Positions 15,994-31,284 of a stretch of DNA of 64,000 bases are shown here, one piece after another. The position numbers and the translations under genes were made by a program. Source of the DNA: Escherichia coli (lineage in GTDB: Bacteria > Pseudomonadota > Gammaproteobacteria > Enterobacterales > Enterobacteriaceae). Position 1 is the first letter of the stretch, and the number at the start of each line of letters is the position of its first letter. Location of the stretch: NCBI RefSeq assembly GCF_013315695.1, contig NZ_CP054353.1; one strand, written 5' to 3'. The notes beneath the pieces are model-generated. The model saw only the letters and a list, made by a program, of their open reading frames with translations. It was not told where the DNA came from and searched no databases.

Positions 15994-16002
15994 TGTGGCA
16001 AT
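15994..16002. repeat. left copy of 9-bp IS1 target-site duplication TGTGGCAAT
   Basis: Identical 9-mer directly flanks both IS1 ends (15994..16002 and 16771..16779). Confidence 0.9.
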
Positions 16003-16017
16003 GGTAATGACTCCAAC

Positions 16018-16521
16018 TTATTGATAGTGTTTTATGTTCAGATAATGCCCGATGACTTTGTCATGCAGCTCCACCGATTTTGAGAACGACAGCGACTTCC
16101 GTCCCAGCCGTGCCAGGTGCTGCCTCAGATTCAGGTTATGCCGCTCAATTCGCTGCGTATATCGCTTGCTGATTACGTGCAGCTTTCCCTTCAGGCGGGA
16201 TTCATACAGCGGCCAGCCATCCGTCATCCATATCACCACGTCAAAGGGTGACAGCAGGCTCATAAGACGCCCCAGCGTCGCCATAGTGCGTTCACCGAAT
16301 ACGTGCGCAACAACCGTCTTCCGGAGCCTGTCATACGCGTAAAACAGCCAGCGCTGGCGCGATTTAGCCCCGACATAGCCCCACTGTTCGTCCATTTCCG
16401 CGCAGACGATGACGTCACTGCCCGGCTGTATGCGCGAGGTTACCGACTGCGGCCTGAGTTTTTTAAGTGACGTAAAATCGTGTTGAGGCCAACGCCCATA
16501 ATGCGGGCTGTTGCCCGGCAT
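16018..16521 (-). CDS. insB: IS1 InsB (transposase C-terminal part; expressed as InsAB' by -1 frameshift)
   Basis: 167-aa [56 protein letters not shown]... Confidence 0.93.
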
Positions 16522-16715
16522 CCAACGCCATTCATGGCCATATCAATGATTTTCTGGTGCGTACCGGGTTGAGAAGCGGTGTAAGTGAACTGCAGTTGCC
16601 ATGTTTTACGGCAGTGAGAGCAGAGATAGCGCTGATGTCCGGCGGTGCTTTTGCCGTTACGCACCACCCCGTCAGTAGCTGAACAGGAGGGACAGCTGAT
16701 AGAAACAGAAGCCAC
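16440..16715 (-). CDS. insA: IS1 InsA (transposition repressor / transposase N-terminal part)
   Basis: 91-aa [45 protein letters not shown]... with zinc-finger-like Cys pairs. Confidence 0.93.
16458..16466 (-). promoter_or_regulatory. IS1 programmed -1 ribosomal frameshift site (A6C motif)
   Basis: Plus strand GTTTTTTAA is the reverse complement of TTAAAAAAC in the insA/insB overlap. Confidence 0.7.
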
Positions 16716-16770
16716 TGGAGCACCTCAAAAACACAATCATACACTAAATCAGTAAGTTGGCAGCATCACC

Positions 16771-16779
16771 TGTGGCAAT
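16771..16779. repeat. right copy of 9-bp IS1 target-site duplication TGTGGCAAT
   Basis: See left copy. Confidence 0.9.
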
Positions 16780-18422
16780 TATTGTTAATGATAATGGCCT
16801 GAAAGCAGGAACGCGTTTTCCGGATGAGCTGGAATTAATTGAACATATTCCCCAGGGGCATAAAGTCGCATTGCTGGACATTCCAGCTAATGGTGAAATT
16901 ATTCGTTATGGCGAAGTGATTGGTTACGCCGTGCGCGCAATCCCACGCGGAAGCTGGATCGACGAATCAATGGTTGTACTACCGGAAGCGCCGCCGTTAC
17001 ACACGCTGCCACTGGCAACCAAAGTCCCGGAACCCTTACCGCCGCTGGAAGGATACACCTTTGAGGGCTATCGCAATGCCGATGGCAGCGTGGGCACTAA
17101 AAACCTGCTCGGCATCACCACCAGCGTCCACTGTGTAGCAGGCGTGGTGGACTATGTAGTAAAAATCATTGAACGCGATCTGCTACCGAAATACCCGAAC
17201 GTCGATGGCGTGGTGGGGCTGAATCATTTGTACGGCTGTGGCGTGGCGATTAACGCACCGGCGGCAGTTGTGCCTATTCGTACCATCCACAATATTTCGC
17301 TGAACCCTAACTTTGGCGGCGAAGTAATGGTGATTGGTCTGGGTTGTGAAAAGTTGCAGCCTGAGCGCCTGCTGACTGGAACGGATGATGTGCAAGCTAT
17401 TCCAGTAGAAAGCGCCAGCATTGTCAGTTTGCAGGATGAAAAGCATGTCGGCTTTCAGTCCATGGTCGAGGATATTTTGCAGGTCGCCGAACGCCATTTG
17501 CACAAACTGAATCGACGGCAGCGAGAAACCTGTCCGGCTTCAGAACTGGTTGTTGGCATGCAGTGCGGTGGCAGCGATGCGTTTTCTGGCGTAACGGCAA
17601 ACCCGGCGGTTGGGTATGCGTCTGATCTACTGGTGCGCTGCGGCGCAACGGTGATGTTTTCAGAAGTCACGGAAGTGCGTGACGCGATCCATCTGCTGAC
17701 ACCACGCGCAGTGAACGAAGAGGTCGGCAAACGGCTGCTGGAGGAGATGGAGTGGTACGATAACTATCTCAATATGGGAAAAACCGACCGCAGCGCCAAC
17801 CCTTCGCCGGGCAACAAGAAAGGCGGTCTGGCAAATGTGGTGGAGAAAGCGCTCGGCTCCATTGCTAAATCGGGTAAAAGTGCAATTGTTGAAGTGCTGT
17901 CGCCCGGCCAACGCCCGACTAAACGCGGATTAATTTACGCCGCGACGCCAGCCAGCGATTTTGTCTGTGGCACGCAACAGGTGGCTTCGGGTATCACCGT
18001 GCAAGTGTTTACGACCGGTCGCGGTACGCCGTACGGCCTGATGGCGGTACCCGTCATTAAAATGGCAACCCGCACCGAGCTGGCGAACCGCTGGTTTGAT
18101 TTAATGGATATTAATGCGGGCACCATCGCTACCGGCGAAGAAACTATTGAAGAGGTGGGCTGGAAGTTGTTCCACTTTATTCTCGACGTCGCCAGCGGGA
18201 AGAAGAAAACCTTCTCAGATCAATGGGGACTGCATAACCAGCTGGCGGTGTTTAACCCAGCACCGGTGACCTGATTTCTTTTGGAACGTCCCTCGCAAAA
18301 CATGGCCTTAGTGCCATGTTTTTATTGTTTAAAGTCCCCACGTCCATTAATAATGCATTTGCATTACCTTAGTTCAAGCTTATAATTTGAGCAGAAAACA
18401 GGCTGTAAAAGGACAGTGAATC

Positions 18423-20334: not shown

Positions 20335-21615
20335 GTGAAACATCTGACAGAAATGGTGAGACAGCACAAAGAGGGCAAAACAAATGGGATTTATGCCGTT
20401 TGTTCCGCACATCCGCTGGTGCTGGAAGCTGCAATCCGCTACGCCAGTGCAAACCAAACGCCGTTACTGATTGAAGCAACCTCCAATCAGGTGGACCAGT
20501 TCGGCGGTTATACCGGAATGACGCCCGCCGATTTTCGCGGCTTTGTTTGTCAGCTCGCCGACTCGTTGAATTTCCCACAGGATGCGTTGATTCTGGGTGG
20601 CGACCATCTGGGGCCAAACCGCTGGCAAAACCTGCCTGCCGCTCAGGCAATGGCCAATGCCGATGATTTGATTAAAAGCTACGTGGCGGCAGGATTCAAA
20701 AAAATTCACCTTGATTGCAGCATGTCCTGTCAGGACGATCCGATTCCCTTAACTGATGACATCGTGGCCGAACGCGCCGCTCGTCTGGCGAAAGTGGCGG
20801 AAGAAACCTGCCGTGAACATTTTGGCGCGGCCGATCTGGAGTATGTCATTGGTACCGAAGTACCGGTACCTGGCGGCGCGCATGAAACCTTAAGCGAGCT
20901 GGCGGTCACCACGCCGGATGCCGCCCGCGCCACGCTGGAAGCCCATCGTCACGCCTTTGAAAAGCAAGGTCTGAGTGCCATCTGGCCACGCATCATTGCT
21001 CTGGTGGTACAACCCGGCGTCGAATTCGATCACACCAACGTTATTGATTATCAGCCCGTCAAAGCGACCGCCTTAAGCCAGATGGTCGAAAACTACGAAA
21101 CGCTGATTTTCGAAGCGCACTCTACCGATTACCAAACGCCGCAATCGCTGCGCCAGCTGGTGATTGACCACTTTGCCATTCTGAAAGTTGGCCCGGCGCT
21201 GACCTTCGCCCTGCGTGAAGCTCTGTTCTCTCTGGCGGCGATTGAAGAAGAACTGGTACCAGCAAAAGCCTGTTCTGGTCTGCGTCAGGTGCTGGAAAAC
21301 GTGATGCTCGACCGCCCGGAATACTGGCAAAGCCACTACCACGGTGACGGCAACGCGCGTCGTCTGGCGCGTGGTTATAGCTACTCGGATCGCGTGCGCT
21401 ATTACTGGCCGGACAGCCAGATTGATGACGCTTTCGCTCATCTGGTTCGTAATCTGGCGGATTCACCAATTCCGCTACCGCTGATCAGCCAGTATTTGCC
21501 GCTGCAGTACGTGAAAGTTCGCTCCGGCGAGCTGCAGCCAACGCCACGGGAACTCATTATCAACCATATTCAGGACATCCTGGCGCAGTACCACACAGCC
21601 TGTGAAGGCCAATAA
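20335..21615 (+). CDS. kbaZ: tagatose-1,6-bisphosphate aldolase non-catalytic subunit KbaZ (AgaZ)
   Basis: 426-aa ORF from [39 protein letters not shown]... Confidence 0.9.
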
Positions 21616-22901: not shown

Positions 22902-23769
22902 TCAAACTACCCTGCCGAACGTCAGTGAAAACGAAGAAACACTGCTGACTGGCGTCAATGAAAACGTGTATGAAGATCAGAGTATTGGCGCGGAGCTGAC
23001 GAAAAAAGATATCAACCGCGTCGCCTGGCGTTCCATGCTGTTACAAGCGTCTTTTAACTACGAACGTATGCAGGCTTCCGGCTGGTTGTACGGTCTGCTG
23101 CCTGCTCTGAAAAAGATCCACACTAATAAACGCGACCTGGCGCGCGCCATGAAGGGGCATATGGGTTTCTTCAATACCCATCCGTTTCTGGTGACGTTTG
23201 TTATCGGCATTATCCTTGCGATGGAGCGTTCTAAGCAGGACGTTAACAGTATTCAGAGCACCAAAATTGCCGTCGGTGCGCCGCTCGGCGGGATTGGCGA
23301 TGCGATGTTCTGGCTAACGCTACTGCCGATTTGTGGCGGGATAGGCGCAAGCCTCGCGCTACAAAGCTCTATTCTTGGCGCAGTCGTCTTTATTGTGCTG
23401 TTCAACGTGGCGCATCTCGGTTTGCGTTTTGGTCTTGCACATTATGCTTACCGCATGGGCGTGGCGGCGATTCCACTCATTAAAGCAAATACCAAAAAAG
23501 TCGGCCATGCGGCATCTATCGTTGGGATGACGGTAATCGGCGCGCTGGTGGCAACCTATGTTCGTTTAAGCACCACGCTGGAAATCACAGCGGGCGACGC
23601 AGTGGTTAAGTTACAGGCTGATGTTATCGACAAACTGATGCCTGCCTTCTTACCACTGGTCTACACCCTGACCATGTTCTGGCTGGTACGCCGCGGCTGG
23701 AGTCCGCTGCGCCTGATTGCGATTACCGTGGTTCTCGGCATCGTCGGTAAATTCTGCCATTTCCTTTAA
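22885..23769 (+). CDS. agaE: N-acetylgalactosamine PTS EIID component AgaE
   Basis: 294-aa membrane ORF, mannose-family IID; overlaps agaW stop; absent from K-12. Confidence 0.85.
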   Translation: MKMASNQTTLPNVSENEETLLTGVNENVYEDQSIGAELTKKDINRVAWRSMLLQASFNYERMQASGWLYGLLPALKKIHTNKRDLARAMKGHMGFFNTHPFLVTFVIGIILAMERSKQDVNSIQSTKIAVGAPLGGIGDAMFWLTLLPICGGIGASLALQSSILGAVVFIVLFNVAHLGLRFGLAHYAYRMGVAAIPLIKANTKKVGHAASIVGMTVIGALVATYVRLSTTLEITAGDAVVKLQADVIDKLMPAFLPLVYTLTMFWLVRRGWSPLRLIAITVVLGIVGKFCHFL

Positions 23770-26856: not shown

Positions 26857-27729
<873 letters not shown>

Positions 27730-27880
27730 TCATTAGTTTTTTATGATTTATCCCAATGTACTTCCCGATTAATATCGGGGAGTGCCTTAATGGAAAAGGA
27801 GATAACTAAACCTTAATAAATACATCAGTAAAATATCGCAACAATAATATATTTTAAAAAATTATGGTAATGACTCCAAC

Positions 27881-28384
27881 TTATTGATAGTGTTTTATGT
27901 TCAGATAATGCCCGATGACTTTGTCATGCAGCTCCACCGATTTTGAGAACGACAGCGACTTCCGTCCCAGCCGTGCCAGGTGCTGCCTCAGATTCAGGTT
28001 ATGCCGCTCAATTCGCTGCGTATATCGCTTGCTGATTACGTGCAGCTTTCCCTTCAGGCGGGATTCATACAGCGGCCAGCCATCCGTCATCCATATCACC
28101 ACGTCAAAGGGTGACAGCAGGCTCATAAGACGCCCCAGCGTCGCCATAGTGCGTTCACCGAATACGTGCGCAACAACCGTCTTCCGGAGCCTGTCATACG
28201 CGTAAAACAGCCAGCGCTGGCGCGATTTAGCCCCGACATAGCCCCACTGTTCGTCCATTTCCGCGCAGACGATGACGTCACTGCCCGGCTGTATGCGCGA
28301 GGTTACCGACTGCGGCCTGAGTTTTTTAAGTGACGTAAAATCGTGTTGAGGCCAACGCCCATAATGCGGGCTGTTGCCCGGCAT
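27881..28384 (-). CDS. insB: IS1 InsB
   Basis: 167-aa ORF identical to copy 1 InsB. Confidence 0.93.
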
Positions 28385-28578
28385 CCAACGCCATTCATGG
28401 CCATATCAATGATTTTCTGGTGCGTACCGGGTTGAGAAGCGGTGTAAGTGAACTGCAGTTGCCATGTTTTACGGCAGTGAGAGCAGAGATAGCGCTGATG
28501 TCCGGCGGTGCTTTTGCCGTTACGCACCACCCCGTCAGTAACTGAACAGGAGGGACAGCTGATAGAAACAGAAGCCAC
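28303..28578 (-). CDS. insA: IS1 InsA
   Basis: 91-aa ORF; differs from copy 1 at one residue (CSVTDG vs CSATDG). Confidence 0.93.
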
Positions 28579-28633
28579 TGGAGCACCTCAAAAACACCAT
28601 CATACACTAAATCAGTAAGTTGGCAGCATCACC

Positions 28634-28844
28634 ACAAACGGTACGTAAATTGGTAGAAGGTGGTATTGACCTGAAAGATGTCAACGTCGGCAATATGCAT
28701 TTCTCGGAAGGGAAAAAGCAAATCAGCAGTAAAGTTTATGTCGATGACCAGGATCTCGCGGACTTACGTTTTATTAAACAACGTGGCGTGAATGTTTTCA
28801 TTCAGGACGTCCCTGGCGATCAAAAAGAACAAATCCCTGACTAA
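28634..28844 (+). pseudogene. agaB: agaB (galactosamine PTS EIIB), 5-prime truncated; only about the C-terminal 69 codons remain
   Basis: Frame ...QTVRKLVEGGIDLKDVNVGNMHFSEGKKQISSKVYVDDQDLADLRFIKQRGVNVFIQDVPGDQKEQIPD matches the AgaB C-terminus and begins directly at the IS1 end. Confidence 0.85.
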
Positions 28845-28882: not shown

Positions 28883-29686
28883 ATGCATGAAATAACCCTA
28901 CTTCAGGGATTATCCCTGGCGGCGTTAGTTTTCGTTCTGGGGATTGATTTTTGGCTGGAAGCCTTATTTTTATTCCGCCCGATAATCGTTTGTACCCTAA
29001 CTGGCGCTATTCTCGGTGATATTCAGACTGGCTTAATTACCGGTGGTCTGACAGAGTTGGCTTTCGCCGGATTAACCCCTGCAGGTGGTGTTCAACCGCC
29101 CAACCCGATTATGGCGGGTCTGATGACCACCGTCATTGCATGGTCTACGGGCGTTGATGCCAAAACGGCAATTGGTCTTGGCCTGCCGTTTAGTTTGTTA
29201 ATGCAGTACGTCATTCTGTTCTTCTATTCCGCTTTCTCATTATTTATGACCAAAGCCGATAAATGCGCAAAAGAGGCGGATACGGCAGCATTTTCCCGAC
29301 TTAACTGGACAACGATGCTCATCGTCGCTTCAGCGTATGCGGTGATTGCTTTCCTCTGTACTTACCTGGCACAAGGGGCGATGCAGGCGCTGGTGAAAGC
29401 GATGCCCGCCTGGCTGACCCACGGCTTTGAAGTGGCTGGCGGTATTCTGCCTGCCGTTGGTTTTGGCTTGCTGCTGCGCGTGATGTTCAAAGCGCAATAT
29501 ATCCCTTACCTGATCGCCGGTTTCCTGTTCGTTTGCTACATCCAGGTCAGCAACCTGTTGCCGGTTGCCGTGCTGGGCGCAGGCTTTGCGGTGTATGAGT
29601 TTTTCAATGCGAAATCCCGGCAGCAAGCGCAACCGCAGCCCGTTGTCAGTAAAAATGAAGAAGAGGACTACAGCAATGGGATCTGA
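28883..29686 (+). CDS. agaC: galactosamine PTS EIIC component AgaC
   Basis: 267-aa membrane ORF MHEITLLQGLSLAALVFVLGIDFW... Confidence 0.9.
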   Translation: MHEITLLQGLSLAALVFVLGIDFWLEALFLFRPIIVCTLTGAILGDIQTGLITGGLTELAFAGLTPAGGVQPPNPIMAGLMTTVIAWSTGVDAKTAIGLGLPFSLLMQYVILFFYSAFSLFMTKADKCAKEADTAAFSRLNWTTMLIVASAYAVIAFLCTYLAQGAMQALVKAMPAWLTHGFEVAGGILPAVGFGLLLRVMFKAQYIPYLIAGFLFVCYIQVSNLLPVAVLGAGFAVYEFFNAKSRQQAQPQPVVSKNEEEDYSNGI

Positions 29687-30467
29687 AATCAGTAAAAAAG
29701 ATATCACCCGTCTGGGCTTTCGTTCGTCACTGCTACAAGCAAGCTTTAACTACGAAAGGATGCAGGCGGGCGGTTTTACCTGGGCGATGTTGCCGATCCT
29801 GAAAAAGATTTATAAGGACGACAAACCGGGCCTAAGCGCGGCGATGAAAGATAACCTCGAATTTATTAATACCCACCCTAATCTGGTCGGATTTCTGATG
29901 GGGTTATTAATTTCGATGGAAGAAAAAGGAGAAAACCGCGACACCATTAAAGGCCTCAAAGTGGCACTGTTTGGCCCAATCGCCGGGATTGGCGATGCGA
30001 TTTTCTGGTTTACCTTATTGCCGATTATGGCGGGAATTTGCTCATCATTTGCCAGCCAGGGAAACCTGTTGGGGCCGATTTTGTTTTTCGCCGTTTACCT
30101 GCTTATCTTCTTCCTGCGCGTCGGCTGGACCCACGTCGGTTATTCAGTCGGCGTGAAGGCGATCGATAAAGTGCGAAAGAACTCGCAGATGATTGCTCGT
30201 TCGGCAACCATCCTCGGGATCACGGTAATCGGCGGGCTGATCGCTTCGTATGTGCATATTAACGTGGTGACATCGTTTGCCATCGACAGTACCCACAGCG
30301 TCGCACTGCAGCAGGATTTCTTCGATAAAGTCTTCCCGAACATTTTACCGATGGCCTACACCCTGCTGATGTATTACTTCCTGCGGGTGAAAAAAGCGCA
30401 TCCGGTGCTGTTAATCGGCGTGACTTTTGTGCTCTCTATTGTTTGTTCCGCATTCGGCATTTTGTAA
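29676..30467 (+). CDS. agaD: galactosamine PTS EIID component AgaD
   Basis: ORF 29565..30467; start taken at MGSEISKKDITRLGFRSSLLQASFNYERMQ (263 aa). Confidence 0.9.
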   Translation: MGSEISKKDITRLGFRSSLLQASFNYERMQAGGFTWAMLPILKKIYKDDKPGLSAAMKDNLEFINTHPNLVGFLMGLLISMEEKGENRDTIKGLKVALFGPIAGIGDAIFWFTLLPIMAGICSSFASQGNLLGPILFFAVYLLIFFLRVGWTHVGYSVGVKAIDKVRKNSQMIARSATILGITVIGGLIASYVHINVVTSFAIDSTHSVALQQDFFDKVFPNILPMAYTLLMYYFLRVKKAHPVLLIGVTFVLSIVCSAFGIL

Positions 30468-31235
30468 ATGGAACGAGGCACTGCGTCTGGCGGTGCCTCT
30501 TTACTTAAGGAATTTCATCCTGTGCAAACCCTTCAACAAGTTGAAAACTATACGGCGTTAAGTGAACGTGCCAGCGAATATTTATTGGCCGTGATCCGTA
30601 GCAAACCGGATGCCGTGATTTGCCTGGCGACCGGAGCCACGCCATTACTGACGTATCATTATTTGGTAGAAAAAATCCACCAGCAGCAGGTTGATGTCAG
30701 CCAGCTTACCTTCGTGAAGCTCGACGAATGGGTGGATCTGCCATTAACGATGCCTGGTACCTGCGAAACTTTCCTACAACAGCATATCGTGCAGCCGCTG
30801 GGGCTGCGTGAAGACCAGCTCATCAGCTTTCGCTCTGAAGAGATAAATGAGACAGAGTGCGAACGGGTAACGAACCTGATTGCGCGCAAAGGCGGTCTGG
30901 ATTTATGCGTTCTCGGATTGGGGAAAAACGGTCATCTTGGGCTGAACGAACCGGGAGAAAACCTGCAACCGGCCTGCCATATCAGTCAACTTGATGCCAG
31001 AACACAGCAACATGAGATGTTAAAAACCGCGGGCCGTCCTGTGACTCGTGGGATCACCTTAGGCCTGAAGGATATTCTCAATGCCCGCGAAGTTTTGTTA
31101 CTGGTGACTGGCGAAGGAAAGCAGGATGCGACAGAACGTTTTCTCACGGCTAAAGTCTCTACCGCTATCCCGGCTTCGTTTTTATGGCTGCATAACTATT
31201 TCACATGCATGATTGATGAGATGTGTCGTCGTTAA
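30468..31235 (+). CDS. agaI: putative galactosamine-6-phosphate deaminase/isomerase AgaI (NagB-like)
   Basis: 255-aa ORF MERGTASGGASLLKEFHPVQTLQQVENY... Confidence 0.88.
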   Translation: MERGTASGGASLLKEFHPVQTLQQVENYTALSERASEYLLAVIRSKPDAVICLATGATPLLTYHYLVEKIHQQQVDVSQLTFVKLDEWVDLPLTMPGTCETFLQQHIVQPLGLREDQLISFRSEEINETECERVTNLIARKGGLDLCVLGLGKNGHLGLNEPGENLQPACHISQLDARTQQHEMLKTAGRPVTRGITLGLKDILNAREVLLLVTGEGKQDATERFLTAKVSTAIPASFLWLHNYFTCMIDEMCRR

Positions 31236-31284
31236 CTCGCCTGCTACAGGCGTTGTAGCGCTATTCCTGCTGCAACGCCTGTAA

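Follow-up and report, generated by a model that had tools for sequence, protein, structure and literature searches.

Deletions that start exactly at the terminus of an insertion element and leave no direct repeats are typical of IS1 and Tn9 (PMC9330008; PMC11708052), and the classical examples, at gal::IS1 and with IS1/Tn9, are products of intramolecular replicative transposition. A comparable pattern has been reported for IS150 in the Lenski lines, where the 'IS-del' events leave an IS copy without a target-site duplication (TSD) beside a deletion; such TSD-less copies have been attributed to adjacent deletion or to recombination between IS copies (PMC11708052). Natural lesions affecting galactosamine use in Escherichia coli have been described separately: K-12 carries a 2.3-kb deletion and O157:H7 strain EDL933 a truncated agaC, the latter strain being Gam- and rescued by plasmid-borne agaBCD (PMC3668189).

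The locus described here lies in a 64,000-nucleotide stretch of E. coli DNA (the window) and combines these two themes, with an IS1-adjacent deletion that has removed the first part of agaB, the gene for the EIIB component of the galactosamine PTS. As in the classical gal::IS1 and IS1/Tn9 adjacent deletions, the missing segment starts at the IS1 terminus, the IS1 itself is complete and its other flank is unchanged; as in the IS1/Tn9 deletions (PMC9330008), one copy of the 9-bp duplication has been lost. Unlike the laboratory-selected IS1 deletions, this one is natural, belongs to a clinical or commensal clone, measures 305 bp and has a precursor that survives in a sister isolate. With the Lenski-line events (PMC11708052) it shares a TSD-less IS beside a deletion; those involve an element of the IS3 family and were seen by population sequencing, while here the element is IS1 and complete genomes are available for all three states of the site. 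As in K-12 and EDL933, galactosamine uptake is lost (here a prediction) with agaS and kbaY still usable, but in this case the gene hit is agaB, the agent is an IS1-adjacent deletion and the phenotype is predicted.

The order of genes in this part of the window is agaW, agaE, agaF, agaA, agaS, kbaY, IS1, agaB fragment, agaC, agaD, agaI and rsmI. The gap between agaI and rsmI is less than 50 bp long (31236..31284); in strain EC25 the fimbrial genes yraH and yraI are found downstream of agaI, and the window's lineage is apparently without them at this position. Outside the clone, the nearest aga sequences are those of IAI39 and CE10 (99.5%). The gene to the left of the element, kbaY (26869..27729, + strand), which encodes a tagatose-bisphosphate aldolase subunit, is intact as a 286-aa ORF, and the accession of its protein is identical in MSB1_4I, AF3 and MS 21-1. 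It is followed by 136 of the 166 bp of the original kbaY-agaB spacer (27730..27865), as determined by alignment to both the empty site and the precursor, and then by the second of the two IS1 copies discussed here (copy 2).

Copy 2 is a complete 768-bp element of the IS1A type, at 27866..28633 on the - strand, with IRR at its left end and IRL at its right. Both of its ends were located as exact 54-nt matches, at 27866 and 28633, and the sequence was also read directly. Its coding capacity is intact: insA (28303..28578, - strand) specifies the 91-aa InsA, the insB frame lies at 27881..28384 on the same strand, and an A6C frameshift site at IS position 307 would join the two in a conceptual InsAB' of 232 aa, an anatomy (insA, insB, A6C -1 frameshift and 232-aa InsAB') that agrees with the published one (PMC12428005). 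The RefSeq label at this position is 'IS1-like element IS1A family transposase, programmed frameshift'. When the 9-mers next to the element were compared, AAAAATTAT on the left (27857..27865) and ACAAACGGT on the right (28634..28642), no 9-bp target-site duplication was found around copy 2, so that the non-matching flanks reported in a first-pass annotation, made from the sequence alone, are indeed present.

At the right end of copy 2 the terminal base of IRL is joined directly to nucleotide 267 of agaB (junction 28633..28634), and the right flank aligns to agaB from that nucleotide onward, which bears out the earlier claim that it begins in the middle of this gene. Alignment shows that agaB has lost its first 88 codons and two bases of the next; the remnant (28634..28844, + strand), a pseudogene, runs from the third base of codon 89 through codon 158 to the stop, and its RefSeq label is 'PTS sugar transporter subunit IIB, incomplete, missing N-terminus'. 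The terminal CC of IS1 happens to rebuild the Pro codon, the frame across the junction reading ...S-P-QTVRKLVEGG, and at this junction the IRL terminus coincides over 2 nt (CC) with the missing agaB bases. A TTG at 28620, within IRL and in frame, opens a 74-aa ORF (28620..28844) that runs into the remnant; this is a mechanical by-product of the junction, and no obvious ribosome-binding site was seen for it. The first-pass observation is correct in all details that can be checked, the loss of about 88 codons included; of the upstream region, which it had also counted as missing, only the proximal part is gone, namely the 30 bp of the spacer nearest agaB, with the other 136 bp kept to the left of IS1.

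To place this arrangement among related strains, 65-nt probes spanning each junction were searched for in 5,426 complete E. coli genomes. Two of these, MSB1_4I and AF3, have the left junction, and one, MSB1_4I, has the right junction; no exact copy of the latter turned up in metagenome contigs. The window matches the MSB1_4I chromosome (NZ_LR898874.1, reverse complement) except for six SNPs and one extra IS1, and differs from AF3 at about 10 places over ~63 kb. The genomes compared are members of a single clone. (The IS1 load of MSB1_4I seems high, with at least 40 pieces, the median for E. coli genomes being about 9-10 places.) AF3 (NZ_OZ547117.1) carries the same IS1, matching in position to the base and in orientation, framed by a perfect 9-bp duplication of AAAAATTAT and followed by a complete agaB, while MS 21-1 and AF14 have the identical spacer with the site empty. 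Another ~270 genomes with an IS1 and an intact agaB within a 2.3-kb span were considered as precursors and set aside; in these, as judged from the matches listed, an unrelated IS1 with its own duplication lies in agaC.

AF3, MSB1_4I and the window agree exactly at the left junction. Alignment to genomes with an intact kbaY-agaB region, which had been proposed at first pass as the way to map the deleted interval, gives a loss of 305 bp relative to the IS1-bearing AF3 and of 296 bp relative to the empty site of MS 21-1. In AF3 exactly 305 bp separate the end of IS1 from the start of the window's right flank, which equals the 9-bp right duplicate plus the 296 bp of the MS 21-1 empty site; the lost sequence is made up of that right-hand copy of AAAAATTAT (9 bp), the 30-bp leader and 266 nt of agaB. 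When AF14 is taken as outgroup, three derived chromosomal SNPs, one SNP within the IS1, and the deletion are found in both the window and MSB1_4I; the deletion can accordingly be assigned, on these alignments, to the branch common to the two. Because the AF14-polarised changes and the deletion are common to the window and MSB1_4I, the order of events runs from an empty site to an insertion with duplication, as kept in AF3, and from there to a deletion flush with IRL, as in MSB1_4I and the window. The AAAAATTAT at 27857..27865 is then what remains of the first target-site duplication, its left copy. Since AF3 has the duplication at the same site and the window's other IS1 has one of its own, its lack at copy 2 is a secondary loss and no argument against the identity of the element as IS1.

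Two steps are proposed to account for these states. In the first, which the alleles compared show directly, IS1 entered the AT-rich spacer between kbaY and agaB by ordinary transposition, at a point 30 bp ahead of the agaB start codon, and duplicated the 9-bp target AAAAATTAT; AF3 has kept that state. In the second, the resident IS1 would have produced an adjacent deletion in the ancestor that MSB1_4I shares with the window's strain, its transposase joining the IS ends to a target on the same molecule, within agaB (the 9-mer ACAAACGGT). Such an intramolecular replicative transposition would leave IS1 and its left flank untouched and remove the 305 bp from the IRL end to the target, taking with it the right duplicate, the 30-bp leader including the ribosome-binding site, and agaB codons 1-88 with two further bases. 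The outcome of this second step can be seen in the genomes compared, whereas its chemistry is inferred. The window differs from AF3 at the locus only by the loss of 305 bp that abut IRL, which is what an adjacent deletion is by definition (PMC9330008). Relative to AF3, the deletion starts at the base after the IRL terminus of a full-length resident IS1, the right copy of AAAAATTAT falls inside the deleted segment, and the opposite flank is the same as in the precursor. Simple insertion followed by an IS1-adjacent deletion, most likely through intramolecular transposition, is thus considered the probable history of the locus, the chemistry included. The earlier suggestion of either an IS1-promoted adjacent deletion or recombination between IS1 copies, in place of simple insertion alone, is supported by the AF3 precursor and the 305-bp loss.

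Recombination between IS1 copies could reach exactly the same final sequence if a second IS1 in the same orientation had inserted within agaB, at the target ACAAACGGT, and a RecA-dependent crossover between the two, 296 bp apart, had then removed one IS1 copy and the interval. The other IS1 in the window can be rejected as the partner. Copy 1 (16003..16770, - strand; 15994..16779 with its duplication, TGTGGCAAT on both sides) has the same orientation as copy 2 and is two SNPs apart from it, but it retains its duplication and is absent from MSB1_4I, which bears the deletion. It therefore arrived after the deletion and, its duplication being undamaged, was not a partner, which leaves only a hypothetical third copy inside agaB, since lost. 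The left junction of such a copy would read CGCCACAAACGGT/GGTAATGACTCC. Apart from the deletion allele, no IS1 junction at this position in agaB was found in the 5,426 complete genomes, the metagenome contigs likewise gave no such allele, and two extra events are needed in place of one. The high IS1 load and the continuing transposition in the clone would favor this route, as would a SNP at 28541, near the IRL side, that separates copy 2 from the AF3 copy, as might be expected of a hybrid element.

That SNP (G>A on the + strand, relative to the AF3 copy; also present in MSB1_4I) lies 93 nt from the IRL end and changes Ala to Val at residue 13 (A13V) in the zinc-finger region common to InsA and InsAB'. 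The change belongs to the branch that bears the deletion, for which about 0.04 SNPs are expected per 768 bp, and may mark a hybrid or converted element. The exact 61-mer with 28541-A is found in 3 of 8313 IS1-bearing E. coli records, those of MSB1_4I and of the unrelated pig isolates SEV1 and SEV4; the allele is thus very rare, was absent from AF3 in the 61-mer search and has no donor in evidence. On balance a crossover between two insertions is regarded as unlikely, though it is the best of the alternatives to intramolecular transposition.

A deletion independent of transposase, whether by slippage, by illegitimate recombination at the CC microhomology or through a host factor of the IEE type, is considerably less probable still. 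CC is indeed found both at the IRL terminus and in the part of agaB that was lost, and IEE has been reported to act on IS1 and to give adjacent deletions with the IS left intact (PMC9330008); a 2-nt match, however, is expected by chance at ~1/16 of junctions, and a random deletion is not expected to stop exactly at the terminal base of an element. It is very improbable that an independent IS1 arrived together with the deletion in one step and without any duplication, AF3 being an unrelated insertion at the same base: TSD-less IS insertions with rearrangements have been proposed (PMC11708052), but two independent insertions at an identical base and in identical orientation would be needed within one clone, and the two of 5,426 genomes with the left junction are near-identical across 63 kb. 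That a repeat was collapsed or mis-joined in the source assembly is scarcely credible; IS1 is multicopy and repeats are prone to mis-assembly, but both junctions recur in the separate complete assembly of MSB1_4I, which differs by six SNPs and one IS1, and the deletion endpoint falls in unique sequence.

Intramolecular transposition is further supported by the intact InsA and InsAB' of the element, by the IS1 load of MSB1_4I and by the activity of IS1 in this clone: copy 1 interrupts garD (galactarate dehydratase) after codon 25, within a perfect 9-bp duplication of TGTGGCAAT, and is found in the window and in none of MSB1_4I, AF3 and AF14. With no counterpart in those three genomes, it is the newest IS1 event in the strain, later than the deletion, and garD::IS1 should abolish the use of galactarate. 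The TTG inside its IRL, the same one as in copy 2, opens a 505-aa ORF into the rest of garD (16757..18274).

Four SNPs are private to the window, at 23411, 26346, 26640 and 31451, all of them transitions; the outer two give agaE V174A and rsmI E233G, and the middle two are synonymous in agaS. They lie between -4.5 and +2.8 kb of copy 2, with none in the other ~55 kb, a clustering for which a post hoc P of about 6e-4 to 7e-3 was obtained. An imported recombination tract gained no support as their source, the haplotype being found in no complete genome, and neither did a basecalling artefact, there being no Dam or Dcm motif context. Together with the SNP inside IS1, they could be the mark of error-prone DNA synthesis close to the element, tied to transposition of IS1 or to its repair.

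A further observation concerns the outward-facing end of the element in AF3. There (segment 5800..5827), the sequence TTGGCA, reading outward from IRL, is separated by 16 nt from TATTAT in the duplicated target, a sigma-70-like match at 10 of 12 positions that stands 26 nt upstream of agaB. No match of this type is present at the empty site, and none at the window's agaB junction, where the deletion has destroyed it. Against its significance, the unrelated garD::IS1 junction (16757..16785) also has TTGGCA-17-TATTGT leading into the rest of garD, a match at 9 of 12, and total counts of promoter matches were not above those in shuffled controls. Fusion promoters formed by IS1 have been described (Prentki et al. 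1986, as cited in PMC9330008), and it may be speculated that the AF3 insertion made a hybrid promoter in front of agaB, independent of AgaR, which has since been deleted. That IS1 activity left more behind than the deletion, in the form of local error-prone synthesis with, as a second layer, a hybrid promoter made as in AF3 and then lost, is thought improbable.

Intact AgaB consists of a single PF03830 domain (mannose/sorbose EIIB; residues 6-153, domain positions 1-148). The remnant, residues 90-158, is not a complete PF03830 domain, and the histidine of RLVHGQVG, the N-terminal phosphorylation site in this family, is gone. Because the half of its sole domain that carries the phosphorylated histidine has been lost, the remnant would be unable to act as an EIIB. 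The earlier statement that the galactosamine PTS would lack its own EIIB is in keeping with this, only residues 90-158 of the one-domain AgaB being left. A full-length agaB elsewhere in the genome would have told against that statement. With more than 60 perfect matches to the deleted 296 bp listed, a second agaB in MSB1_4I was judged by the 3' agaB segment instead, and this segment occurs there at one place, so that the strain has no second agaB. The paralogous EIIB, AgaV, is intact and 49% identical to AgaB.

Downstream of the remnant, agaC (28883..29686), agaD (29676..30467) and agaI (30468..31235) are all intact on the + strand, and the stretch that they occupy (28883..31235) is identical to that of AF3. 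IS1 insertions are strongly polar, and the element is predicted to cut agaCDI off from the agaS promoter. The operon agaS-kbaY-agaBCDI is driven by the PS promoter, galactosamine uptake needs agaBCD, and strains with polarity on these genes are Gam- (PMC3668189). A useless agaB remnant, with agaCDI behind IS1 and deprived of the agaS promoter, probably leaves the aga regulon with a dead galactosamine branch. The N-acetylgalactosamine branch (kbaZ-agaVWEF-agaA, agaS and kbaY) is intact, and the strain is predicted to be N-acetylgalactosamine-positive and galactosamine-negative.

Other lesions in the same cluster were met with in the genomes compared. The agaC::IS1 allele of EC25 (NZ_CM169476.1; IS1 at 4212..4979 of the segment) likewise has the agaBCD operon disrupted by IS1, but there by a simple insertion with a 9-bp duplication, TCCGCCCGA, and with agaB intact; it is independent of the present deletion and belongs to other lineages. 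The same 2304-bp geometry among the matches listed suggests that many of the ~270 genomes mentioned above share it. Among the strains with the empty site, AF14 has agaC annotated as frameshifted (20591..21402 of the segment) and MS 21-1 has agaA, labelled nagA, annotated as frameshifted (1409..2531 of the segment), which suggests repeated independent decay of aga genes in this lineage.

The event itself is an ordinary, textbook IS1-adjacent deletion that has made agaB a pseudogene, at a locus already annotated as such in RefSeq. Its sole unusual point is that the empty, inserted and deleted states all survive in near-identical natural isolates, so that a TSD-less IS is explained by direct comparison rather than by inference, which gives the case a modest didactic value. 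The AF3 allele offers a handy natural substrate for measurements of IS1-adjacent deletion and of polarity. For E. coli, with little import beyond the strain, the locus adds one more case of independent decay of the aga cluster.
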